Part shown: one piece after another, positions 14,916-62,540 of the stretch
How positions within the stretch are numbered: the stretch's first letter is position 1
Layout of the letters: every line of letters begins with the position of its first letter
Source: Anaerolineales bacterium
GTDB lineage: Bacteria > Chloroflexota > Anaerolineae > Anaerolineales > UBA4823
DNA length: 64,000 nucleotides
Assembly: GCA_020060465.1 (NCBI GenBank)
Contig: JAGVAD010000005.1
Span: 46,003 to 110,002 of the forward strand
Direction: 5' to 3'
Made by a program: the position numbers and the translations under genes
The notes under the pieces: generated by a model
Seen by the model: only the letters and a program-made list of their open reading frames with translations
The model's database searches: none
What the model was told of the DNA's origin: nothing

Positions 14916-15626
14916 TCAATCCTGAGGGCTGGGGATGTAATCGCCCTCCACCCATTCCTCGCCCTGCGCCCCGACTTCCTTCTTCCACACCGGCACGATC
15001 TCTTTGAGGCGGTCAATGCCATAGCGCGCGGCTTCGAAGACTCCGGTGTCGCGGTGCGCTGCGGTGCAGGCGATCAGCACCGTCGGCGTGCCGGGGTGCA
15101 GTACGCCGATGCGCTGCACGATGGCGATGCCCTCCACGCTCGGCCAGCGGGCGCGGATTTCTTCCGCCACCTGGCGCATCTTGGCCTCCGCCATTGGCTG
15201 ATAGGCTTCGTATTCCAGGTAAAGGGTCTCGTGTGGTTGGTCGCGGCGGGTGACGCCGCGCACCATGCCGGTGAAGATGCAGGCCGCGCCGGTGGAGGGC
15301 AACGTGATGCGCGCCAGCAGATCATCCAGGTCGAGCGCCTCTTCGGTGATGGCGAAGAAGGTCGGGAATTCAGGCGGCGCGCCGCCGCTGACCGGTGGGA
15401 AGACTGCCGCCTCTGCCCCGGCGGGCAGCAGGTCGTCATCGAAGGCGAACTGGCGGTTGACCGAGACCAGCGCCGTATCCAGCGCCGGAGCCAAAGCGGG
15501 GTACTCCTCCCGCAAACGGCGCTTCAAATCGGCCACGCGCGCCTGATCGGGCATCTCCAGCGTTGCTTGTTTAGTGCCGGCGCGCTCGCGCAGGGTGGCG
15601 AAAAATAAGACAGTAATCTGGTTCAT
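14916..15626 (-). CDS. moaDE: molybdopterin synthase MoaD-MoaE fusion protein
   Basis: The N-terminal 82 aa are MoaD-like and end in FPPVSGG. This continues directly into a MoaE domain (ACIFTGMVR...LEYEAYQPMAE...PVWKKE). AGGTGG lies upstream of ATG 15626. Confidence 0.8.
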   Translation of the reverse strand: MNQITVLFFATLRERAGTKQATLEMPDQARVADLKRRLREEYPALAPALDTALVSVNRQFAFDDDLLPAGAEAAVFPPVSGGAPPEFPTFFAITEEALDLDDLLARITLPSTGAACIFTGMVRGVTRRDQPHETLYLEYEAYQPMAEAKMRQVAEEIRARWPSVEGIAIVQRIGVLHPGTPTVLIACTAAHRDTGVFEAARYGIDRLKEIVPVWKKEVGAQGEEWVEGDYIPSPQD

Positions 15627-15648
15627 ACACTGATCCACCTATAAAAGG

Positions 15649-16128
<480 letters not shown>

Positions 16129-16173
16129 GCGGAGAATTATAACAGGTGGATTTGCTCTACAGTAGCACTCTTG

Positions 16174-16574
16174 TGGCACAGGCTGAAGTCTGTGCTACCT
16201 GGTCACAGGCTAAAAGCCTGTGCTACTTGGTCACAGGCTGAAGCCTGTGCTACTTGGTCACAGGCTAAAAGCCTGTGCTGTGCTACCTGGTCACAGGCTA
16301 AAAGCCTGCGCTACTTGGTCACAGGCTAAAGCCTGCGCTACTTGGTCACAGGCTAAAGCCTGCGCTACTTGGTCACAGGCTAAAGCCTGCGCTACTTGGT
16401 CACAGGCTAAAGCCTGTGCGCTACTTGGTCACAGGCTAAAAGTCTGTGCTACTTGGTCACAGGCTAAAGCCTGCGCTACTTGGTCACAGGCTGAAGTCTG
16501 TGCTACCTGGTCACAGGCTAAAAGCCTGTGCTACCTGGTCACAGGCTAGTGGCACAGGCTTAAGCCTGTGCTAC
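16174..16574. repeat. tandem array of ~15 copies of a 27-28 bp hairpin unit (consensus TGGTCACAGGCTAAAGCCTGYGCTACY)
   Basis: Read directly from the sequence. There are 12 full TGGTCACAGG units of 27-33 bp, one truncated unit, and terminal TGGCACAGG variants, with no spacers. Each unit contains the palindrome CACAGGCT-(2-3 nt)-AGCCTGTG. Confidence 0.9.
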
Positions 16575-16619
16575 GCGAGTAGGGCGATTCGTTCGTCAGC
16601 AGCAGTAGCGAGATCAGGC
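16575..16619 (-). pseudogene. relic of the cysW 3' end next to repeat array 1
   Basis: Both array ends read GCCTGTGCTACGCG. The stretch CAGCAGCAG(TAG)CGAGATCAGGC at 16597-16619 matches cysW 20492-20511 (20 nt, one 3-nt insertion) at a similar distance from the array. Confidence 0.5.
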
Positions 16620-16642
16620 TTTATTTCCCAGGTGCAAGGCAT

Positions 16643-16753
16643 TTGCGCCACGGACGGGTTGCTGCGCTTGCCGCGTGCTGCTTGCTTGAAAGCCGCATAC
16701 AGATTGATGAAAGAGGTGATTTGAGGATAGAGGTTGTCGAAGCGTTTGGTCAT
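16643..16753 (-). pseudogene. N-terminal remnant (~37-45 codons) of a DGR/group-II-type reverse transcriptase
   Basis: MTKRFDNLYPQITSFINLYAAFKQAARGKRSNPSVAQ matches the conserved RT N-terminus pattern (K/R-R-x-x-N-L-[YFW]-x-x-I-x-S-[FW]-x-N-L-x-x-A-[FY]-x-x-A-x-[KR]-G-K-R). The reading frame then runs into the cysW relic and array, and no RT motifs 1-7 are present. Confidence 0.6.
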
Positions 16754-16791
16754 GCACACCAGCCGAAGAAAAAACCTGCCGCGTTTAACCG

Positions 16792-16812
16792 CTGGGGGGC
16801 GCAGCCCCCCAG
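16792..16812 (-). other. GC-rich hairpin (9-bp stem, 3-nt loop) between the VR-bearing gene and the RT remnant
   Basis: CTGGGGGGC-TGC-GCCCCCCAG on the minus strand has a perfect stem. A T-run (GGTTTTTTCTT) lies ~17 nt further downstream. Confidence 0.5.
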
Positions 16813-16861
16813 ACCCCCCTCAGAAACCAGACTCCAGCCGCCAGCAGCCAGAAACCAGCAT

Positions 16862-19834
16862 TCAGTATTCTGCCAGGGACAACACCACCCGGAACCCGAT
16901 GTAGTTGAGGAAGAGGTTGAGCGGATAGTACCTGCCGCGGTAGGCGCAGCGGGCGTCCTGTGGATGGGCGTTCCACGAGCCGCCACGCATCACCCGAGCG
17001 CCATCCGCTTGCAAGTCGTTGCGTCCATCCTCCGCGTGATAGGGGTATGGTTGGTAGAGGCTGAGTGTCCATTCCCAAACGTTGCCGCTCATATCAAGCA
17101 CATCGTAGGGGCTGGCGCCTTTGGGAAAGATGCCCACCGGCGAGGTCTGTTCGAGTTGGGTTTCGCTGTAATTGGCATGCTCGGGGGTGATGCGGTTGCT
17201 GCCCCAGGGATAGATGCGCCCGTCCGCGCCGCGCGCCGCTTTTTCCCATTGCGCCTCGCTGGGCAAGGAGAAACTTTCAGGGCGCTGCGCCGCTAGCCAG
17301 AAGGCGCGCTGCTCTGGAGAGAGGTCGTCCCGCGCCAGGTATTGTGAGCTAAGCGAGGCTAATTTCTCGCCCAGCCAGCGGCAGTAGGCCAACGCTTCAT
17401 ACCAGCTTACCCCCATCACGGGGCGGGTCAGCGCTCCCCCTCTGGCATCTCCCCAATCGTACGGCTGGCTGCGGTTGTTCCTCTGCTGCCAGTCCCAGCC
17501 CGATTCCGGCGGTGTCCAATATCGCCGCTCATCGTAGCCATGCTCGGCGATGAAGTGGGCGAATTGGGCGTTGGTAACCGGGTAACGGCTGATGTAGAAA
17601 GCGGGCAATTCCAGGGTGTGTGGGGGCTTTTCGTCGTTATCCGCCTGCTTGTCATTCTCGGCGCTGCCCATCCGAAATGGCCCGGCAGGGATATACACAA
17701 AGCCCAGGGTCGGTTCTGGCCGGGTGCGGTAAAATGCCGGCAGGCTGAAGGTCTTTTCGTCGAAGCGCGGGTCGCCCAGAGCGGCCAGGGTATCGCCCGC
17801 GCGGGCGCGCAGGGCAGCCGGCGCGTTGCATGCCGGGTCGGTGAGCGCGGCTTCCAACTTCCCCGCCAGTTTGCGGCGAATGGCTGGATCCGGTCGTTCA
17901 ATTTCCAAGACGGCGGCGCCCGCCAGTTCCAATCCCCCCAGTTGCAGCGCTCCCTCGCCGCGCAGATTCGAGAGCCAGTCGAGATACTTTTGGGCGAAAG
18001 GGGCATAATCCTGTTTGGCGAAGCCGTATATCAGCAACAGCGCCTCGCGCCACCAGGAATCCAGCACATAATCCCGCAGCAAGCCCAGCGATAGCTCGCG
18101 GTCTTTGGCTAACCGGCGCGCCGCCAGGAACTCCTGAAAGGTCAAATGGGCGAACTGGAAGAGTTCAGCGCGCTCTTCCAGTAATCCACCGCGGCTGCGC
18201 ACCGCTTTGATAAATTGATCCAACCTTTCTTTCGGCAGTTGAACGCTCAAGATTTCCCGCAAACGCGCTTCATCAACGGCAGCCCCGTTTTCCCCGTTGC
18301 GGTGCATTTCGAGCGCCAAATAAGCAAGCCACTCACGCTGTTCTTCCCAGGGGCCTCCCCAGTTGATCAATTCCTGACGGGCAGTATCCTCCTCCAGGTA
18401 TTGCGCCTGTAAGATGACCCGAACGACCGCTTCGTACAGGCGCGCCCGTTCGCGCGGCAATTCGGCCTCGCCCCATTTGACGCCGATCACCATGGTGGTC
18501 AACAAGGGTGTGCTGATCAGCGGGGGTTGATTTTGCCGTTCGTAGCGCTCATTGATGGTTCGAATAACAGAGGTAATGTCGGCAACCTGCGCCTCAACCT
18601 GAGTGGGGAACAATTGTTCACACCACCGACGCGCCAGATATTCGATTTGGTCGTCCTTCAGCTTGCACACATCCAGGCGGATAAAATCTTCGCTGAAGAT
18701 GGCGTTTTCTTTGTAGCCCGATTCACGTGCCGTGACGATGAACAGATTTCGCGGATAGATTTCGTTCGCCAGACGCTCGATTTCTTGGCGCGCCTGGCCG
18801 CGCTCTTCCTGGCTGACCACTTCATCCAGCCCATCCAACATCACCAGACAACCCCCGCCCACCAGCAGACGGTCAAAAAATTCATCCGCCAGGTCTTCAT
18901 CCGCTGTTTGGATCGCCTGGCTGCGTTTCTTGAGATACCATAAAATGAAACCCGCCAATGTCCCTGAACGCACTTTGGTAAGCACCTGGTCGGGCGACTC
19001 ATGGCACAGGCGCATGTATTCGCGCCGATAGCGCAGAGGAATGACCAGCGGCACCAGGGCGCGTCTCTGACTGGGCAAGTCGAAAGGCAGCGCCGTCTGG
19101 TGCAACGCATGGTCGGCTAATGAAGAAGCCAGAAAGGCCAGCAGGGTGCTTTTGCCGCTGCCCGCGCCGCCGATGATTGCCAGGCGGTCGCCCAGGGTCA
19201 GCATCTCCTTGAGGGCGATTTGTTCGCCTTCTGTTTGCCGCCTCTCGATTAATCGCAAAAAGGCTTTTTGCTCGGCGAATGGGTCGTCCTTGAATTTTTC
19301 TTGGGCCAGCTTTTCCACTTCGCTGCGCGCTGGCGGCGAAAGACGTTGCAAGGTAATGGGCACAAAGACGTCCGCCAGATTGCGCTTCTTGCGTTCTCCA
19401 GAGCGGCCCCACCCTTCCAAACCATACAAACGAGCCTGTCCAAAGGCTTTCTGCGCCCAGACGAAATAATCATACAGCAAACGCCGGAAGTCATCTTCCG
19501 ACATGCGCGGTTTGCCAGGCGGCGTCTGGAAAATCTGATACAGCACGACCCCGGTGTTGAGCCAGGAATGACTGACGGTTCCGCCGCTTGCAATTCCAGC
19601 ATTGTTTGCGTGTGTATTTGGCGCAGATTTCTCGCTCCGTCGGCTCAAGAACCAGAAGACCCCCGAAGCCAGCGACCCAATTGCCCACAGGATAGAGAGG
19701 AATGCATCTGCGCTCTGGATTAGCTCGCCGCGCGCGCCAAGAAAATTCATCAACGGCCGCCAGCCCAACCAGGTAACGATTGCCAGCAGCGCCAAAACGA
19801 GGGTGGTTCGTAGATAAGCCGACTTGTTTTTCAT
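16862..19834 (-). CDS. membrane-anchored NACHT-domain STAND NTPase with C-terminal FGE-sulfatase (SUMF1/DUF323-type) domain
   Basis: 990 aa. Two N-terminal TM helices are present. The NACHT domain shows Walker A IIGGAGSGKSTLLAFLA, Walker B CLVMLDGLDEV and the FIVTARESGY region. The last ~279 aa (nt ~16865-17701) are FGE-type (FVYIPAGPFRMGS...YPVTNAQF...MSGNVWEWT...RVMRGGSW...GFRVV). GGGAGG lies upstream of ATG 19834. Confidence 0.85.
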   Translation of the reverse strand: MKNKSAYLRTTLVLALLAIVTWLGWRPLMNFLGARGELIQSADAFLSILWAIGSLASGVFWFLSRRSEKSAPNTHANNAGIASGGTVSHSWLNTGVVLYQIFQTPPGKPRMSEDDFRRLLYDYFVWAQKAFGQARLYGLEGWGRSGERKKRNLADVFVPITLQRLSPPARSEVEKLAQEKFKDDPFAEQKAFLRLIERRQTEGEQIALKEMLTLGDRLAIIGGAGSGKSTLLAFLASSLADHALHQTALPFDLPSQRRALVPLVIPLRYRREYMRLCHESPDQVLTKVRSGTLAGFILWYLKKRSQAIQTADEDLADEFFDRLLVGGGCLVMLDGLDEVVSQEERGQARQEIERLANEIYPRNLFIVTARESGYKENAIFSEDFIRLDVCKLKDDQIEYLARRWCEQLFPTQVEAQVADITSVIRTINERYERQNQPPLISTPLLTTMVIGVKWGEAELPRERARLYEAVVRVILQAQYLEEDTARQELINWGGPWEEQREWLAYLALEMHRNGENGAAVDEARLREILSVQLPKERLDQFIKAVRSRGGLLEERAELFQFAHLTFQEFLAARRLAKDRELSLGLLRDYVLDSWWREALLLIYGFAKQDYAPFAQKYLDWLSNLRGEGALQLGGLELAGAAVLEIERPDPAIRRKLAGKLEAALTDPACNAPAALRARAGDTLAALGDPRFDEKTFSLPAFYRTRPEPTLGFVYIPAGPFRMGSAENDKQADNDEKPPHTLELPAFYISRYPVTNAQFAHFIAEHGYDERRYWTPPESGWDWQQRNNRSQPYDWGDARGGALTRPVMGVSWYEALAYCRWLGEKLASLSSQYLARDDLSPEQRAFWLAAQRPESFSLPSEAQWEKAARGADGRIYPWGSNRITPEHANYSETQLEQTSPVGIFPKGASPYDVLDMSGNVWEWTLSLYQPYPYHAEDGRNDLQADGARVMRGGSWNAHPQDARCAYRGRYYPLNLFLNYIGFRVVLSLAEY
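16877..17000 (-). other. DGR-type variable region (VR) at the 3' end of the NACHT-FGE gene
   Basis: This 124-nt segment is homologous to 20026-20146, with identical 27-nt and 24-nt flanks. In the core, 13 of 15 substitutions fall on adenines of the other copy. It encodes [33 protein letters not shown]. Confidence 0.75.
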
Positions 19835-19850
19835 CCATACCTCCCAGAAT

Positions 19851-19890
19851 GCCTCCGCGCCGCGCTCTTGCAGAGACAGGGCGCGGAGGC
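19851..19890 (-). other. 11-bp perfect stem-loop just upstream of the NACHT gene RBS
   Basis: GCCTCCGCGCC ...18 nt... GGCGCGGAGGC. The loop contains a further CTCT/AGAG pairing. The structure ends ~5 nt upstream of the GGGAGG RBS on the transcribed strand (~16 nt upstream of the ATG). Confidence 0.5.
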
Positions 19891-20025
19891 GGTTGGATAT
19901 TCGGCCGGGCGTCGCCTCGCCAGGGGCAAACGCCGCGACCAGGGGCTGACCAGGCTGGCAAAGTTTCTAACGCTCCGTCCCGCCTCTGTAAAGGTTGGGA
20001 TTTACCGGCGTTTTCATTTCGCTAT

Positions 20026-20146
20026 GGACAACACCACCCGGAACCCGATGTTGTTGTTGAAATTGTTCGGATTGTTCCTGTTGCGGTAGGCGCAGCGGGC
20101 GTTCCGTGGATTGTTGTTCCACGAGCCGCCACGCATCACCCGAGCG
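20026..20146 (-). repeat. DGR-type template repeat (TR), Asn-codon (AAC/AAT) rich
   Basis: This 121-nt copy of the VR reads [32 protein letters not shown]. It lies inside a 77-aa TTG-started ORF (20014-20247) that lacks the rest of an FGE domain and has no RBS. Confidence 0.75.
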
Positions 20147-20259
20147 GTGTGGGTCAGTCCCTGCAAAGCTGCGGCGCAAAGCCGCGGATTGCTCGATTGA
20201 TGTGGCATCTGTCGCTTCCAGCCGCGCTGGATCGCGAGTTTTCCCAATCGTTATTCACT

Positions 20260-20288
20260 ATTGTAGAATAATTTGTAGAGGATGGCAA
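20260..20288 (-). promoter_or_regulatory. candidate sigma70-type promoter reading toward TR and the NACHT gene
   Basis: The minus strand reads TTGCCA (20288-20283), a 17-nt spacer, then TACAAT (20265-20260), within an AT-rich patch. Tandem AAAATCCGTTG direct repeats lie just upstream. Confidence 0.4.
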
Positions 20289-20366
20289 CGGATTTTCAAC
20301 AACGGATTTTTATAATGGAGAGCATTCGGATGGTTTTCCACTCATAGAGGGGAATTTGATCTGAAG

Positions 20367-20447
20367 TGGCACAGGCTTTAGCCTGTGCTACCTGGTCACA
20401 GGCTAAAAGCCTGTGCTACTTGGTCACAGGCTAAAAGCCTGTGCTAC
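20367..20447. repeat. second array (3 units) of the same hairpin repeat, same orientation as array 1
   Basis: TGGCACAGGCTTTAGCCTGTGCTACC, TGGTCACAGGCTAAAAGCCTGTGCTACT and TGGTCACAGGCTAAAAGCCTGTGCTAC. The cysW stop codon (20444-20446) lies inside the last unit. Confidence 0.9.
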
Positions 20448-21289
20448 GCGGGATTGCGCTCTTTGCGGCGCATCCAGTCTGCGCCCATCACCAGCAGCAG
20501 CGAGATCAGGCCCAACACCAGGGCGGCGCTGTAGGCGCCGATGTACTGGCGTTCATCCAGCGCTCGATAGATGTACAAGGTGGCGGTTTCGGTGCGCCCC
20601 TGGATGCCTCCACCGATCACCAACACCGCGCCGAACTCGCCCAGGGCGCGCGCCAGAGTCAGCGTCACGCCGTAGATGAAGCCCCAGCGCAACGCCGGCA
20701 GGGTCACCCGCCAGAAGGTCTGCCAGCCGCTGGCGCCCAGGGTGGCGGCGGCCTGCTCTTGCTGTACGCCGAAGTTCTCTAAGATGGGGATCAGTTCGCG
20801 CACCATGAACGGCAGGGTGACAAACAGGGTGGCCAGGATCATACCTGGAACAGCGAACGCCACGCGGATGTGAAGCGCATCGAGCAGAGGCGCAAACAGT
20901 CCATTGCGTCCGAAGAGCAGCAGCAGCATATAGCCCACCACCACCGGCGAGACGGCGAAGGGCATGTCTATCAAGCCGTTGATATACTTGCGCCCCGGAA
21001 AGCGGTCGCGCACCATCACCCAGGCGACAATGACGCCAAAGACGCTGTGAACCGCGACCACGATGGCGCTGATTTGCAGGGTGAGCCAAAAGGCTTTGAG
21101 CACCTCCGGCTGCGACAGCGTCTCCAGCGCCGCCCCCAGGCCCTCTCGGAACGCTCCGCTCACCAGGGCAACGATGGGCGCCAGGATCAACACCCCCACA
21201 TAGAGAGCCACCGCTCCAATCAAGAGCCAACGCACCCAGCGGTTGCTGGCCGGTGTGGGACGGGTCGTTTTGTTGGTATTGAGGTTCAT
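20444..21289 (-). CDS. cysW: sulfate ABC transporter permease CysW
   Basis: 281-aa 6-TM permease. The EAA-loop region ARALGEFGAVLVIGGGIQGRTETATLYIY resembles CysW. Its start overlaps the cysT stop by 4 nt. Confidence 0.8.
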   Translation of the reverse strand: MNLNTNKTTRPTPASNRWVRWLLIGAVALYVGVLILAPIVALVSGAFREGLGAALETLSQPEVLKAFWLTLQISAIVVAVHSVFGVIVAWVMVRDRFPGRKYINGLIDMPFAVSPVVVGYMLLLLFGRNGLFAPLLDALHIRVAFAVPGMILATLFVTLPFMVRELIPILENFGVQQEQAAATLGASGWQTFWRVTLPALRWGFIYGVTLTLARALGEFGAVLVIGGGIQGRTETATLYIYRALDERQYIGAYSAALVLGLISLLLVMGADWMRRKERNPA

Positions 21290-22203: not shown

Positions 22204-24099
22204 TTAGCTTTCGATAATCAATGGATAGATCTGCGCGCCGATGAAATGCGAGCGCACAATCAGCGTCGCCCGGTCGTTGATCGTGTTCAATGCCTGCTCC
22301 ACCACGCCCGAAAGTGAAATTTGGCCTTTTTGGCCGGCCAGCGGCGCGCCCATAACCAATAAGTCATACCCGCCGCGCTTGACTTCCTGGGCGATGACCT
22401 CTACTGGCTGACCCTGATGAACAATCGCCTGCGCTGGGACGCCCAGCAATGCCAGCGACTGAATGCCGTCCTCCAGGAAACGCTCGGCGCGCCGCTTTGC
22501 ATCGGGATCGTTTCCGCTCAGCACAGAGAGCAGAGCCGCGTCGGCGCCCAGGTGGCGCACCAGGCGGCCGGCGAACAGCACATCGTCTTTGCCTGGCTCG
22601 CCTCTGGCGACGCAGATCAGGGCGTGACTGGGCGGCGCTTGCGGGCGCGGGATCAACAGCAAGTGATGCTCGCCCACCTGCAGAATCTGTTCCGCCAGGG
22701 GGATGTCTTCCTGCGGGTTGAACCCCAACACGATCAAATCGAACGGTTGTTGTTCGACCGCTTTGGTGATCGCCGCGGCGACGGGCTCCGGCGAAAGGCG
22801 CGCCTCCAGCGAGGCCAACCCGCTGCCGAGCTGCTTGCGCGCCTCCTGCAAATGCTCCTGCATCACCTCTTCTTTTTGCCCACAACCCAGCAGCGTCACG
22901 CGAGCATGGGCGAGGCGGGCAATTTGCCCGCCCAATTCGATTGCCGCCTGAGCGCGCAGTGAACCATCTGTGATAATCAAGAAACTCAACCCTGGATGCG
23001 CCAGGGCATGGATGCGATGGACGCCAACCCAGGCTTTTGCGCCTGGTCGGAGCGGAAAGCGCGCCGCCTGTTCCGGCGAGCGCGTGGCATCCACCAGGAT
23101 GGATTTGGTGCCAAACGGCGATGGCGGCGAGATGGGGCGCACATTGGGAATGGGCGGTAAGCGCAGCCGCAGCCGTTCGTAAGCCCCGCCAAACGAGACC
23201 TCCTCGACCTCCGCCTGCCCCAGGCGAGGGCAGTCCAGCGCTTTGGGTTCTGGCGCCAGGGCGACATCCTCCGGGCGGAACAGCACCTGAACGCGCCGCT
23301 CTTGCCCGGTTTCTAGGATCTCTTGCTCAATGGGAAAATGCAATGGCCCAACCGTAACGCCTTGTGAATTTACGTTACCTAACAACAAATTGGCTGACCC
23401 CAGGAAGGAGGCGACGAATTCGGTGCGCGGCCGTTGATAGAGGTCTTCCGGCGCGCCCACTTCGATCAAGCGCCCAAAGCTCATGATCCCCACCCGATCC
23501 GCCAGATCGAAGGCTTCTTCCTGATCGTGGGTGACAAAGATAGTGGCGATGCCCAACTGGCGCTGGATGGATTTCAAACTGCGGCGCAGTTCAATGCGAA
23601 TCTTGGCATCCAGCGCGCCCAGGGGTTCGTCCAACAGCAACACATCCGGGCGATAAGCCAGGGCGCGCGCCAGCGCCACGCGTTGTTGCTGACCGCCGGA
23701 TAACTGGCGCGGCATTCGGTCGCCCAGCCCCGCCAGGCCCACCAGCTCCAACAGCTCGTCGCGCCGCCGTTTGCGCTCTGCCGCGGGAATTTTACGGATG
23801 CTCAAACCGAACTCAATGTTTTCGGCAACGGTCATATATTGAAACAAAGCATAATTTTGGAAGACGAACCCCACCCTGCGTTGCTGCGTGGGCAGGTGGG
23901 TCACATCCCGCCCATGCAGCAAAATGCGTCCCTCGTCTGCATGAGTCAGCCCGGCGATGAGGCTCAGGATGGTGGTCTTGCCGCTGCCGCTTGAACCGAG
24001 CAGCACGAAGAATTCGCCGTCGCCCACTTCTAAAGAGACGTTATTCACCACCGGGTGCCCGTCATAACGCTTGGTCAGATGTTCGAGAATGATGGACAT
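22204..24099 (-). CDS. cysA: sulfate ABC transporter ATPase CysA fused to two C-terminal USP-like domains
   Basis: Walker A GSSGSGKTT, signature LSGGQQQRVALARAL and Walker B LLLDEP are followed by a TOBE-like segment. About 270 extra residues then form two universal-stress-protein-like repeats, the second ending LLVMGAPLAGQKGQISLSGVVEQAL...ATLIV. The start is at ATG 24099 (MSIILEHLTKRY). Confidence 0.8.
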   Translation of the reverse strand: MSIILEHLTKRYDGHPVVNNVSLEVGDGEFFVLLGSSGSGKTTILSLIAGLTHADEGRILLHGRDVTHLPTQQRRVGFVFQNYALFQYMTVAENIEFGLSIRKIPAAERKRRRDELLELVGLAGLGDRMPRQLSGGQQQRVALARALAYRPDVLLLDEPLGALDAKIRIELRRSLKSIQRQLGIATIFVTHDQEEAFDLADRVGIMSFGRLIEVGAPEDLYQRPRTEFVASFLGSANLLLGNVNSQGVTVGPLHFPIEQEILETGQERRVQVLFRPEDVALAPEPKALDCPRLGQAEVEEVSFGGAYERLRLRLPPIPNVRPISPPSPFGTKSILVDATRSPEQAARFPLRPGAKAWVGVHRIHALAHPGLSFLIITDGSLRAQAAIELGGQIARLAHARVTLLGCGQKEEVMQEHLQEARKQLGSGLASLEARLSPEPVAAAITKAVEQQPFDLIVLGFNPQEDIPLAEQILQVGEHHLLLIPRPQAPPSHALICVARGEPGKDDVLFAGRLVRHLGADAALLSVLSGNDPDAKRRAERFLEDGIQSLALLGVPAQAIVHQGQPVEVIAQEVKRGGYDLLVMGAPLAGQKGQISLSGVVEQALNTINDRATLIVRSHFIGAQIYPLIIES

Positions 24100-24185
24100 A
24101 GACAGTTCCCTGAGTTGAGCGCGCGCCAATGACCGTTTACGCGCCAACCTTGAAGCCAGTTTACCCCAGGGGAATGACAGGCGGC

Positions 24186-59061: not shown

Positions 59062-60666
59062 ATGATCCAGTTCACCACTCCCTTATCTATCCGCCTGGGC
59101 GTCATCGGCGCGGGCACCATGGGCAGCGGCATCGCGCTAACTGCCTTGCTCGCCGACATGTACGTGACTCTATATGATATTGATTTACAGACGCTGGAAC
59201 GCGCCTGGAATTCTATTGACCGCTACCTGGCGCGCAAATCCAGGTCCAGCAATCTGACCCATCTCAAATTAACCTCTGAATGGGAGGACCTGGGCAAAGC
59301 TAATTTCATCATCGAAGCTGTTCCAGAAGATCTGGCGATTAAGCAAGACCTGTTCTCCCGCCTGGACGCTTTGTGTCCACCGCCGGCCATTCTGGCAACC
59401 AATACCAGCACGTTGGCGGTGACGGCCATTGCCGCTGCGACTCAATACCCTGAACGTGTGGTGGGCATGCATTTCTTTAACCCGGCGCCCGTGTTGCCGT
59501 TGGTCGAAGTCGTACGCGCCGCGCAGACCGACGACGCTGCGGTTCAGGCGGCGGTGGCGGCGGCAAAGTTCCTGGGAAAAACGCCGGTTGAAGTGCGCGA
59601 TACCCCTGGCTTCATTGTCAACCGCGTGGCGCGTCCTTTCTATGGCGAGGCGCTGCGCCTGGCTGGCGAAGGGGCAGCCAGCTATGAGGTCATTGACCGC
59701 GTTGTGCGCCTGGGCGGCGGGTTTAAGATGGGGCCGTTTCAACTGATGGATCTGATTGGCATAGATGTCAACCTGGCCGCCACGCAATCCATGTACGAAC
59801 AGACTTACGGCGAGCCGCGTTACCGGCCGCATTATTTGCAAGTGCAAATGACGCAGCAAAAGGCTTTAGGGCGCAAGACCGGGCGCGGCTTCTATAACTA
59901 TGACTCAGAGCCGCCTTTTGACGATTCGCTCCGCCTGCCCGCCGGTTTGGGCGTAGCCAAGGGTCCCGGTGAGCAGGCAGTGTACCTTGCTGCGGGCGAC
60001 TGGGCGCCGGGGATGGCGCAAGCCTGCCGGCAAGCCGGTTATTTGCTGGCAGCCGCGCCGGGCGCGGGTTACCTCGCGCTGTCGCCCACGTCGGATTCGG
60101 TTGGGCTGGTTGCAGTGGGTTATTCAGAGGGGCTGAAGGAAAGGCTTGCCAGCCTGGAACGCCAGCTTCCCTCTGAAGCATTGATCCTGTGCCAATGCGC
60201 CGACGTTACATTGACGGAGCTGGCTGCCGAGATGAATACTCCTGAACGGTTGGTGGGCTTCGATGGCCTGTTCTTTGCTGGCGGACAGGTCGCCACGTTG
60301 GTCGCCAGCCCTGTGCTGACGGATCGGGCGCGCCGGGCGGCGGAGACTTTTATCGCCAGCCTGGGGCGGCTGCCGATCTGGGTGAACGACTCGCCAGGGC
60401 TGATCTTGCCGCGCATGGTTTGTATGCTGGCGAATGAGGCCGCCTTTGCCGCCGGAGAAGGGATCGCTGAGCCAGAGGAGATTGACCGCGCTATGCAGCT
60501 TGGCGTTAATTATCCAAAAGGACCACTGGCCTGGGCGCGCCAGTTGGGTCTTGCCCGCGTCGTCGCGGTATTGGATCATCTACACGCTGAATTGGGGGAA
60601 GAGCGCTACCGCGTTGCGCCTCTGTTGCGGCGATGGGCGAGGCTGGAAAAGTTGACCCGCTACTAA
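59062..60666 (+). CDS. 3-hydroxyacyl-CoA dehydrogenase, PaaH-like with duplicated C-terminal domain
   Basis: NAD site IGVIGAGTMGSGIA, FFNPAPVLPLVEV and PGFIVNRV are present. A second 3HCDH_C-like segment sits at the C-terminus (PGLILPRMVCMLANEAAF...GVNYPKGPLAWA). Confidence 0.75.
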   Translation: MIQFTTPLSIRLGVIGAGTMGSGIALTALLADMYVTLYDIDLQTLERAWNSIDRYLARKSRSSNLTHLKLTSEWEDLGKANFIIEAVPEDLAIKQDLFSRLDALCPPPAILATNTSTLAVTAIAAATQYPERVVGMHFFNPAPVLPLVEVVRAAQTDDAAVQAAVAAAKFLGKTPVEVRDTPGFIVNRVARPFYGEALRLAGEGAASYEVIDRVVRLGGGFKMGPFQLMDLIGIDVNLAATQSMYEQTYGEPRYRPHYLQVQMTQQKALGRKTGRGFYNYDSEPPFDDSLRLPAGLGVAKGPGEQAVYLAAGDWAPGMAQACRQAGYLLAAAPGAGYLALSPTSDSVGLVAVGYSEGLKERLASLERQLPSEALILCQCADVTLTELAAEMNTPERLVGFDGLFFAGGQVATLVASPVLTDRARRAAETFIASLGRLPIWVNDSPGLILPRMVCMLANEAAFAAGEGIAEPEEIDRAMQLGVNYPKGPLAWARQLGLARVVAVLDHLHAELGEERYRVAPLLRRWARLEKLTRY

Positions 60667-62540
60667 CGCGGCTGCGCCTGCTTGCACCCCTCCACAATCT
60701 CGGCGGATAGATCGTAACGCCCAAACTGCGGCATGAGATATACCCCGCTCGCCCAGGGACGCATTTGCTCGATCAATTCTAAGGCAATGCGCACGCCCTC
60801 CCATGGGGCGTCATTACCGGCTTTGCGAATGCGTTCTTGCATGGCCTCGGAAATCAAGATGCCCGGCACCTCGTTGTGCAAGAAGGCAGCATGACGCACG
60901 CTGTATAAGGGCAGCACGCCGACCAGAATGGGGATTTCGATAGGGCCGTGCTGGTCAACGATACGGCGGATGAAAGCTTCTGCGGCTGGCGGATCGAACA
61001 CCGGCTGCGTGAGGATGAAGTCCGCCCCAGCTTTGATTTTACGCAACAAGTTCTTGATCTCGCGTTCCGGGTCTTGCGGACATAGGTTTAGCGCGCAGCC
61101 TACAAAGAACGAAGTTGGTTGACCAATATCCACCCCGGCGTGATCTTGCCCCAAATTGAAGTTTTGTTTGATCAATCGGATCAGCCCAGAAGGGGTCAGA
61201 TCGTAATTGTCCATGGCGTCGGGGTAGTCGCCAATCGCCGTAGGATCGCCCATGACAACAAACACATTGCGAATGCCCAGCGAGTGCGCTGCCAGCAGAT
61301 CGCCCTGTACACGCAGCAGATTGCGCCCGCGAGTTGGGAAGTGCAGCGTGGTATCCACCCCCACCTGACGCTGTATCAGGTCGCACACTGCCCAGGGGCT
61401 CATGCGCATACGCGCCATTGGGCTATCGGCCACATTGATCACGTCCGCGCCAGCTTCCGCCAGCAGGCTGGCGCCAGCTAACAGCTTGTGAGTGGACAAA
61501 CCGCGCGGTGGGTCCATCTCGACGGCGACCACAAATTTCCTCTCCGCTAGTTTCTGCGCCAGCGGCGAAGGCGGCTGCGTTGCCCCAGCCAGTTCTTCGC
61601 TCTCCACAGGCAGATATAGCTCGCTGATGGAGGGGCCGCAGCCTTCCGGCAAGCGCGCCAGGGCGGCGTGCATCGCAGCGATGTGTTGGGGTGTGGTGCC
61701 GCAACAGCCGCCGACCAGGCGGGCGCCGGCTTCGCAAAACGCCAGGGCGTAATCGCCAAAATATTGCGGGTTGGCCGGGTACATAATGCGTCCGCCTACT
61801 TGCTCCGGCCAACCGGCGTTGGGCATCGCCGAGAAGCGCGCTCCGGGCGCTGCCTGCGCCATCTGCCGCAGGATGCGCCAGATTTGCGCCGGCCCGCCGG
61901 AACAATTCACGCCGATCACATCTGCCCCGCATTCCGTCAACTTACGCGCTACCGCAACTGGTGAGTCGCCTAACAGGGTGCGGTCATCACGGGTGTAGGT
62001 CATGGAAGCCACTACGGGCAGGTTGCATACCTGTCGGGCGGCGGCGATTGCCTCGCATAGCTCAATCAGATCGCTGAACGTTTCGATGATCAGCAGATCC
62101 GCGCCCGCCTCCGCTAATGCCCGAATCTGCTCTGCGAAAGCCAACCGCGCCTGATCGGGCTGGACGCGTCCAAAGGGCGCCAGGCGCACACCCAATGGGC
62201 CGACATCACCGGCAATATAGACGTCTTTCGCGGATGCCTCAGCCGCGCGTCGCGCCAGCTCCACCCCGGCGCGGTTGATCTCAGCTACCTGACCCTCTAA
62301 CCCATGCGCGGCGAGCTTATATCGGTTCGCGCCAAAGGTGTTGGTCTGGATCACCTGCGCCCCGGCTTCAATATACTCGCGGTGAATATCAGTCACCAAA
62401 GAGGGTTGAGCCAGGTTGAGGGCGTCAAAACACTGGTCAAAGCTCACCCCACGCGCGTTGAGCAGGGTGCCCATTGCCCCATCAGCCAGCGCCGGAGCGG
62501 TTGAATGGTCGAGCAGAGTCAGGAACTCTATTTTGGGCAT
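60663..62540 (-). CDS. bifunctional homocysteine S-methyltransferase domain / 5,10-methylenetetrahydrofolate reductase (YitJ-like)
   Basis: The N-terminal Hcy-binding domain (ADGAMGTLL...IQTNTFGAN...GGCCGTTPQHI) is followed by an MTHFR domain (FVVAVEMDPPRG...HFPTRGRN...ILTQPVFD). Confidence 0.8.
   Translation of the reverse strand: MPKIEFLTLLDHSTAPALADGAMGTLLNARGVSFDQCFDALNLAQPSLVTDIHREYIEAGAQVIQTNTFGANRYKLAAHGLEGQVAEINRAGVELARRAAEASAKDVYIAGDVGPLGVRLAPFGRVQPDQARLAFAEQIRALAEAGADLLIIETFSDLIELCEAIAAARQVCNLPVVASMTYTRDDRTLLGDSPVAVARKLTECGADVIGVNCSGGPAQIWRILRQMAQAAPGARFSAMPNAGWPEQVGGRIMYPANPQYFGDYALAFCEAGARLVGGCCGTTPQHIAAMHAALARLPEGCGPSISELYLPVESEELAGATQPPSPLAQKLAERKFVVAVEMDPPRGLSTHKLLAGASLLAEAGADVINVADSPMARMRMSPWAVCDLIQRQVGVDTTLHFPTRGRNLLRVQGDLLAAHSLGIRNVFVVMGDPTAIGDYPDAMDNYDLTPSGLIRLIKQNFNLGQDHAGVDIGQPTSFFVGCALNLCPQDPEREIKNLLRKIKAGADFILTQPVFDPPAAEAFIRRIVDQHGPIEIPILVGVLPLYSVRHAAFLHNEVPGILISEAMQERIRKAGNDAPWEGVRIALELIEQMRPWASGVYLMPQFGRYDLSAEIVEGCKQAQPR

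Follow-up and report, generated by a model that had tools for sequence, protein, structure and literature searches.

A hypervariable head-to-tail REP cluster encloses a polymorphic DGR island between cysW and moaC of an Anaerolineales bacterium

Introduction

Classical families of repetitive extragenic palindromes (REPs) comprise hundreds of copies per genome. The GTAG-tagged REPs are defined by a GTAG end, a palindromic stem-loop and an extragenic position; an ORF next to them often has its TAG stop codon within their GTAG end, in clusters parts of the adjoining DNA are repeated together with the REPs, and head-tail REP pairs are rare (Di Nocera 2013, PMC3733652). These elements, and the REPtrons composed of a REP and a RAYT (TnpAREP), have been described in several studies (Nunvar 2010, PMC2817692; Di Nocera 2013; Corneloup 2021, PMC8266576). 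The second system relevant here, STAND/NACHT-CLec(FGE) sensors diversified by diversity-generating retroelements (DGRs), is a class known from filamentous or multicellular bacteria (PMC10907252, PMC7159879).

Here we describe a locus of an Anaerolineales bacterium (Chloroflexota) at which the two are nested. The stretch of DNA analysed, called the window in the following, is 64 kb long and carries a hairpin array between the genes cysW and moaC. A preliminary description did not assign the repeat unit to any named family. Read in the sense direction, this unit proves to be a GTAG-tagged REP, the core of which flanks RAYT genes in other genomes. Hence, the apparent mystery is removed: the array turns out to be a cluster of REPs, repeats of a known kind in an unusual arrangement. 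It is hypervariable, head-to-tail and, within the ~71 kb examined, restricted to one locus, and it presumably serves as the recombinogenic frame in which a polymorphic DGR island is set.

Results and Discussion

Array organisation and flanking genes

Array A (16173..16574, minus strand) consists of 14 full GTAG-hairpin (REP-type) units and one truncated unit joined head-to-tail without spacers, as the preliminary description had proposed. Hand parsing gave full units of 27, 28, 29 or 33 bp and 13-14 bp for the truncated one; Tandem Repeats Finder reported 13.3 copies with a period of 27 at 16177-16548 (88% matches, score 531). Array B (20366..20447, minus strand) contains three units of the same family and orientation, and its GCCAC-type final unit abuts the island (Tandem Repeats Finder: 20380-20447, period 28, 2.4 copies, 97%). 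The final unit of array A on the moaC side is of the GCCAC-ended terminal type, too. The preliminary description had also stated that the period is a multiple of three and creates fake ORFs. The former applies only in part, because the period is 27 or 28, and the latter is correct: the long ORFs running across the array are artefacts.

Within the sequence covered, the units are confined to these two sites. With up to two mismatches, the hairpin core CACAGGCTNNNNGCCTGTG had 14 matches in the 64-kb window compared to 0.13 expected from shuffled sequences, and all of them were located in arrays A and B. A fuzzy search allowing up to 5 edits detected no further unit copy in the window, and about 7 kb of L129 contained none either, so that about 71 kb in all were covered. 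Within the JGI metagenome collection the tandem junction motif matched the cysW-moaC locus alone.

All genes around the array are located on the minus strand. Upstream lies the gene for a CysW-type sulfate ABC permease (20444..21289, minus strand), with which a cysA(-Usp)/cysT/cysW operon ends. Its TAG stop codon (20444-20446) is the TAG of the first GTAG in array B, which bears out the earlier remark that the three-unit copy in the same orientation holds the cysW stop. Downstream follow moaC, encoding cyclic pyranopterin monophosphate synthase (15649..16128, minus strand), a moaD/E fusion, a PALP enzyme gene, fabF and rnc. Two gene fusions were noticed in this neighbourhood: a CysA-like ABC ATPase carrying a C-terminal universal stress protein domain (22204-24147), and MoaD joined to MoaE (14916-15638), followed by the PALP enzyme, which is threonine-synthase-like. 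In exact-protein look-ups CysT was identical to MDI6694584.1 of the MAG GCA_030017765.1; no match was obtained for the NACHT protein of the window, for cysW, for P0016 or for the ORF at 60663-62540.

Array A had been thought to occupy the whole region upstream of moaC, with the moa promoter in or beyond it. The former does not hold in this form, and the latter is not supported. Between array A and the moaC ATG there are 44 unique bases (16129..16172, minus strand), identical in all alleles described below. They contain an extended -10 motif, TGtTATAAT, at 16144-16136 on the minus strand, 7 nt before the moaC ATG and kept in all alleles; no Shine-Dalgarno sequence was found ahead of moaC. Judged by this motif, a separate promoter below the array is the more likely arrangement, and moaC is probably transcribed from within the 44-bp segment as a leaderless mRNA.

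Unit structure and folding

The unit on the sense (minus) strand reads GTAG-CACAGGCT-(TT/TTT/TC/TA)-AGCCTGTG-ACCA(A/G). An unpaired GTAG is followed by a perfect 8-bp stem (CACAGGCT/AGCCTGTG) enclosing a loop of 2-4 nt, and by a 5-nt linker, ACCAR. The GTAG head is found on the minus strand in every unit, the single exception being a GTAA in one sister allele (L121). Arrays close with a unit ending in ...CTGTGCCAC; the GCCAC end of such terminal units corresponds to GTGG on the opposite strand.

The palindrome reported earlier for each unit corresponds to a genuine 8-bp stem: the canonical unit folds as ssDNA with -8.4 kcal/mol (z = -4.9) and the GCCAC-type terminal unit with -9.3 kcal/mol. 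Internal variants reach only -5.3 (GCGCAGG) and -3.0 kcal/mol (CAGAC) and thus weaken the stem, in agreement with the preliminary description. Folding of the whole array gave strong structures for both strands (z = -9 and -10), which is uninformative because the two strands fold equally well. Among the stem variants, G.T wobbles occur on either strand, and wobbles versus mismatches exhibit no consistent strand bias; accordingly, there is no sign of selection on RNA of one polarity.

Otherwise identical units occur with their loop in both orientations (TTT vs AAA, TTCC vs GGAA). Such loop-flipped units were found at 20366-20391 of the window (unit 3 of array B), in units 8 and 10 of the upstream array of allele L126, and at L010 6526-6717. 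Such pairs point to inversion of the loop by intra-hairpin template switching, or to flipping of the REP.

No T-run follows the hairpins and no terminator-like site was detected within either array; since ACCAR follows instead, the array hairpins are not intrinsic terminators. Rfam searches of the whole window and 18 related loci, for this locus also in E-value mode, yielded no family at the gathering score and sub-threshold chance matches only. A literature search with the unit sequence strings returned unrelated primers only, and with the accession numbers nothing. Palindromic repeats of about 28 bp in regular spacing might also be taken for a degenerate CRISPR-like array, or for an iteron or operator array serving a dedicated DNA-binding protein. 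We consider this very improbable, since the repeats have no spacers at all, carry the GTAG tag, share their unit with RAYT-flanking REPs of other phyla and are highly unstable in copy number. The array is neither a CRISPR array nor an intrinsic terminator nor a known Rfam RNA.

Alleles of the cysW-moaC locus

The same locus was recovered from related strains by the exact-protein look-ups and one metagenome scan, with flanks 98.4-99% identical. Two alleles represent the empty site. L125 (JGI Ga0226835_1009461) consists of the cysW TAG, 12 units, the 44 bp and moaC; L123 (GCA_030017765.1) has at least 17 units, a gap of 100 N inside the array and two 72-bp composite repeats, each made up of a REP and a 45-bp spacer. 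In the filled alleles the island is flanked by units on both sides: 5 units, island and 10 units in L121 (ENA), which is identical to L124; 10 units, island and 4 units in L126-L128, the arrays being identical in three independent JGI assemblies; and 3 units, a truncated island and 14 units in the window. One metagenome, Ga0226835, contains a filled (L124) and an empty (L125) allele together.

Consequently, the array is the native cysW-moaC spacer and the island a presence/absence polymorphism nested in it. The link between array and island assumed earlier is therefore real: the island sits inside the array and not merely beside it, and thereby divides it into two direct-repeat blocks.

Array lengths, the comparison of which across related strains had been suggested in the preliminary description, differed between the alleles (12; at least 17; 5+10; 10+4; 3+14). 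The order of the units was different in every allele as well. The array thus behaves as a minisatellite, with unit number and order varying in every allele examined. Runs of identical variants are specific for the respective allele, namely four times GTAGCGCAGGCTTTAGCCTGTGACCAA in the window, three times the AGCCCGTG variant in L125 and many GCGCAGG units in L123. These runs, together with the divergent unit numbers, fit the growth by internal duplication that had been postulated before.

The copy numbers are taken from short-read metagenome assemblies, in which arrays longer than a read can be mis-resolved, and the counts have to be read with this in mind. Array and variation together might even be assembly artefacts, given that the L122 contig begins inside the array and that L123 has its 100-N gap there. 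This is extremely improbable: the array was found in at least 8 independent assemblies (ENA, JGI, NCBI, Logan) with conserved junctions, the identical 10|4 arrays were assembled three times independently by JGI, and the unit orders hold allele-specific variants instead of collapsed consensus copies.

The island junctions are invariant across the filled alleles. On the cysW side the junction reads GCCAC|TTCAGATC. On the moaC side a 45-bp spacer-type element (16575..16619, minus strand), seen in the sequence, joins island and array A; its sequence is akin to that of the 45-bp spacers in the L123 composites of 72 bp. In L121 the cysW 3' tail (GCCTGATCTCGCTGCTGCTG) recurs exactly as the first 20 nt of the element, and in the window 19/20 positions match. 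The element has the appearance of a reiterated copy of flanking DNA, and the composite spacers that of decayed copies of the final ~45-60 nt in cysW. Sites with composite repeats or spacers are L123 12215-12394, L121 5779-5894 and 16575-16619 of the window. The last residues of CysW, too, vary between strains right at the junction with the first REP (…KERNLA* at L121 44-63 vs …KERNPA* at 20444-20462 of the window).

Alternatively, the array might be a selected regulatory device, i.e. an insulator, an attenuator, a 3'-stabiliser of mRNA or a source of small RNAs, with copy number tuning expression. Its position is constant in all alleles, after the upstream stop codon and just upstream of the putative moaC promoter; in filled alleles an array follows each transcription unit, the cys operon and the island; both strands fold strongly; and such roles have been credited to REPs in enterobacteria (background of PMC3733652). 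Nevertheless we regard selection for such a function as unlikely. The hairpins lack a U-tract and an Rfam match, and wobbles and mismatches are distributed without strand bias. Furthermore, copy number at equivalent positions ranges from 3 to at least 17 and stem-weakening variants have been amplified, which looks like drift rather than tuning.

The DGR island between the arrays

Neither L123 nor L125, the two empty-site alleles, contains the island (16620..20365, minus strand; L121: 195-5778). The order of the island in sister strains is TR, a NACHT-FGE target gene with VR, RT (RVT_1), bAvd and TCAD2. In L121 all features of a DGR are present, namely RT and Avd, adenine-specific TR/VR differences and a VR in an FGE-fold target. 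The target gene of the window (16862..19834, minus strand) encodes a 990-aa NACHT protein (STAND NTPase) with a C-terminal FGE-sulfatase/C-type-lectin domain; the VR (16877..17000, minus strand) forms its 3' end, and its stop lies about 290 bp from array A (16575-16861). The TR (20026..20146, minus strand) is located upstream of the target gene, and a sigma-70-like promoter sequence, TTGCCA-17-TACAAT (10/12), precedes it at the cysW-proximal end of the island (20260..20288, minus strand).

Of the RT gene, only the first 36 codons are left in the window (16646..16753, minus strand). The remainder of RT, bAvd and TCAD2, corresponding to L121 3912-5746 (~1.83 kb), has been deleted, and the deletion joint coincides with a 7-bp microhomology, CGTGGCG (16646-16652). 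Due to this loss the DGR copy of the window cannot diversify its target unless RT is provided in trans.

TR and VR are 86-88% identical, and 15 of the 17 differences between TR and VR of L121 are located at TR adenines. The VR of the window differs from that of L121 (3560-3680) at many TR-adenine positions and by a 3-bp insertion, whereas the two TRs differ by a single nucleotide and the strains are 99% identical. This indicates that mutagenic homing continued after the strains had diverged. Read from the sequences, the VR differences are the footprint of recent DGR activity. The protein cluster comprises six distinct variants at ≥90% identity.

Between the target stop/VR and the start of RT we observed a GC-rich hairpin, GGGGGGC-TGC-GCCCCCC (16794-16810), followed by a T-run on the sense strand a few bases on. 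It could be a DGR post-VR hairpin or a terminator.

The hairpin in other phyla and its linkage to RAYT genes

One genome per species was used in a scan for the core CACAGGCT-N2-4-GCCTGTGCTAC. The exact core was found in at least 120 genome stretches, while by our estimate about 13 would be expected by chance in 596 Gb. The matches listed are from Acidobacteriota, Planctomycetota, Verrucomicrobiota, Desulfobacterota, Elusimicrobiota, Dormibacterota, Ignavibacteria, Armatimonadota and others; more genomes may carry the core than were counted, and nothing can be concluded from the lack of Chloroflexota among the matches listed. In these other genomes the core is always accompanied by GTAG and located between genes. 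The commonest layout elsewhere is that of REPIN-like convergent inverted doublets about 50 bp apart, in some copies with compensatory stem changes. A tandem array of the hairpin with a 33-bp unit was found at one Gemmataceae locus. The core was also present in 21 stretches of viral or proviral IMG/VR contigs (L131-L151).

In the preliminary description it had been argued that a ubiquitous REP-like element would reduce the array to an expanded REP cluster with no specific link to the island. Such an element was encountered in other phyla; in about 71 kb of this genome, however, the unit is restricted to one locus.

In 4/120 loci a Y1_Tnp gene is directly flanked by inverted hairpins with GTAG pointing outward (L094 4941-5449; L120 7303-7941; L086 3562-4306; L078 1077-1695). 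The hosts are a Deltaproteobacteria MAG, two Acidobacteriota MAGs and an Elusimicrobia MAG. All four Y1 genes matched PF01797 above the gathering threshold in a profile search, they also matched NCBIfam NF047646 'REP-associated tyrosine transposase' (93 bits for L094, cutoff 80), and database homologues of the four proteins are named RayT. The RAYTs are only 29-50% identical to each other and the REP core is the same. Because of these four loci we consider the unit of the window a REP type cognate to RAYTs elsewhere, and we infer a RAYT-mobilised REP family as their source. The 64-kb window itself contained no RAYT gene, so the array may be an orphan.

The RAYTs surfaced only on inspection of the ORFs between hairpins. 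An all-vs-all BLASTP of 3726 ORFs revealed as recurrent neighbours of the hairpin only common housekeeping and regulatory families, each in at most 8/120 loci. We also considered the hairpin as a cross-phylum signal associated with DGRs. This idea was rejected, since tblastn with RT, Avd, TCAD2 and NACHT-FGE detected no DGR genes in the 120 hairpin loci.

Two further observations concern these other genomes. At L078 ~1040-1400, the coding frame of the RAYT includes REP copies, and the peptide STGFQPV recurs in its translation. In MAGs of Dormibacterota and Acidobacteriota (L054 2839-6813, L101, L120) the hairpin follows nearly every gene, often with TTCTTTTG or GRTTTT after it, and may double as a terminator there.

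In another explanation, the DGR island is mobile and the arrays of the window are the sites at which it attaches or is processed. A hairpin-specific HUH/Y1 enzyme, a RAYT or a similar one, would cut the GTAG hairpins and move the cassette as ssDNA, and the array would be a site-specific target of the island. Arrays in direct orientation do bracket the island, its cysW-side junction lies exactly after the terminal GCCAC unit in every filled allele, and presence and absence occur within one metagenome. Moreover, REPs are known insertion targets of IS elements (PMC3733652), and RAYTs process their cognate REP ssDNA in vitro (PMC8266576). Yet the island has neither transposase nor recombinase and encodes only TR, NACHT-FGE, RT, bAvd and TCAD2; its moaC-side junction falls inside the 45-bp spacer-type element and not at a REP boundary; DGR genes were found in 0/120 other hairpin loci; and the window has no RAYT. 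Such a role of the arrays in mobilisation is therefore quite unlikely.

Proposed explanation

Our main reading, to which we assign a probability of about 0.7, is that a cluster of GTAG-REPs serves as the native spacer between cysW and moaC, behaves as a minisatellite, frames the island and acts as a barrier at the RNA level, with moaC having its own promoter. A REP would have been seeded downstream of cysW and then amplified by slippage or unequal recombination. One amplified segment of the past may have taken in part of the cysW tail, giving rise to the 72-bp composites. Growth and shrinkage of the array would proceed by slipped-strand mispairing or unequal homologous recombination between units, and the two array blocks could be the substrate of recombination leading to loss of the island or its exchange between strains. 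As RNA, the hairpins might form a 3' stem-loop barrier or attenuator ending both the cys transcript and the island transcript, like other REPs, and moaC would start from its leaderless promoter just downstream of the array. The lack of dispersed copies in ~71 kb and of a RAYT gene in the 64-kb window counts against this explanation, and so does the missing strand bias of the stem variants.

More tentatively, the array may be seen as a 'landing pad' for gain, loss and swap of the DGR island, possibly aided by a RAYT, in combination with cross-phylum spread or co-conservation of the REP-RAYT pair. We think this wider reading doubtful. If it were true, a NACHT sensor island would be gained, lost and swapped within an Anaerolineales population via a head-to-tail REP array. 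One REP type in at least 10 phyla with RAYTs of 29-50% identity would furthermore imply spread of REPtrons between phyla or an extreme long-term co-conservation of REP and RAYT. According to the prevailing view, by contrast, REPIN-RAYT systems are lineage-specific and inherited vertically.

The locus is a natural example in which a defence-type DGR island with a NACHT-FGE sensor, set in a hypervariable repeat array, can be followed in its presence, absence and decay by RT loss, and it thereby provides a handle on the turnover of such islands in uncultured filamentous Chloroflexota. It is also a documented case of a REP minisatellite built head-to-tail and without spacers, reportedly a rare arrangement, and the array is a possible strain marker in metagenomes. 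The occurrence of the GTAG-CACAGGC REP type with flanking RAYTs across many phyla bears on the question of how REP-RAYT systems spread.

Comparison with known systems

The units share with CRISPR arrays the regular series of palindromic repeats of about 28 bp. In contrast to these, they abut with nothing but the 5-nt ACCAR between them, carry the GTAG tag and belong to a family associated with RAYTs elsewhere.

With the known STAND/NACHT-CLec DGRs the island has in common the set of RT, bAvd and TCAD2, the NACHT-FGE target and the adenine-specific TR/VR pair. It differs in that the TR lies upstream of the target, ~3.3 kb from RT, that RT, Avd and TCAD2 are deleted in the window, and that the cassette is nested in a REP array.

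Like the BIMEs of enterobacteria, the locus is an intergenic REP cluster with a copy number variable between strains; BIMEs, however, alternate the orientation of their REPs and use defined linker motifs, whereas the orientation of the units in the window is uniform and their linker 5 nt long. REPINs (Bertels & Rainey 2011, PMC3116915) resemble the GTAG-CACAGGC core at Acidobacteriota (e.g. L101, L002) and Dormibacterota loci, where it forms convergent doublets with a pairing spacer, but in the window the units are singlets in direct tandem without inverted doublets. Within the same phylum, T. roseum has GTAG-tagged palindromes in few large blocks that are not dispersed, a likeness based on comparison by description only; its units are described as inserted in small CCGSSCC...GGSSCGG palindromes, none of which were seen in the array of the window.

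The closest relatives are the GTAG REPs and REPtrons. Classical GTAG REP families are dispersed in hundreds of copies with head-tail pairs being rare, while here a single locus (~71 kb examined) contains units in one orientation, without spacers and with no RAYT in view. The array shares a number of features with them: its unit of 27-28 bp falls within the 20-40 bp of GTAG REPs and has the unpaired GTAG (or GTGG) end and the GC-rich palindromic stem-loop, its site is extragenic and GTAG provides the upstream ORF, here cysW, with its TAG stop, REPs are reiterated together with bits of flanking DNA, and in four other genomes inverted copies of the core stand on either side of RAYT genes.
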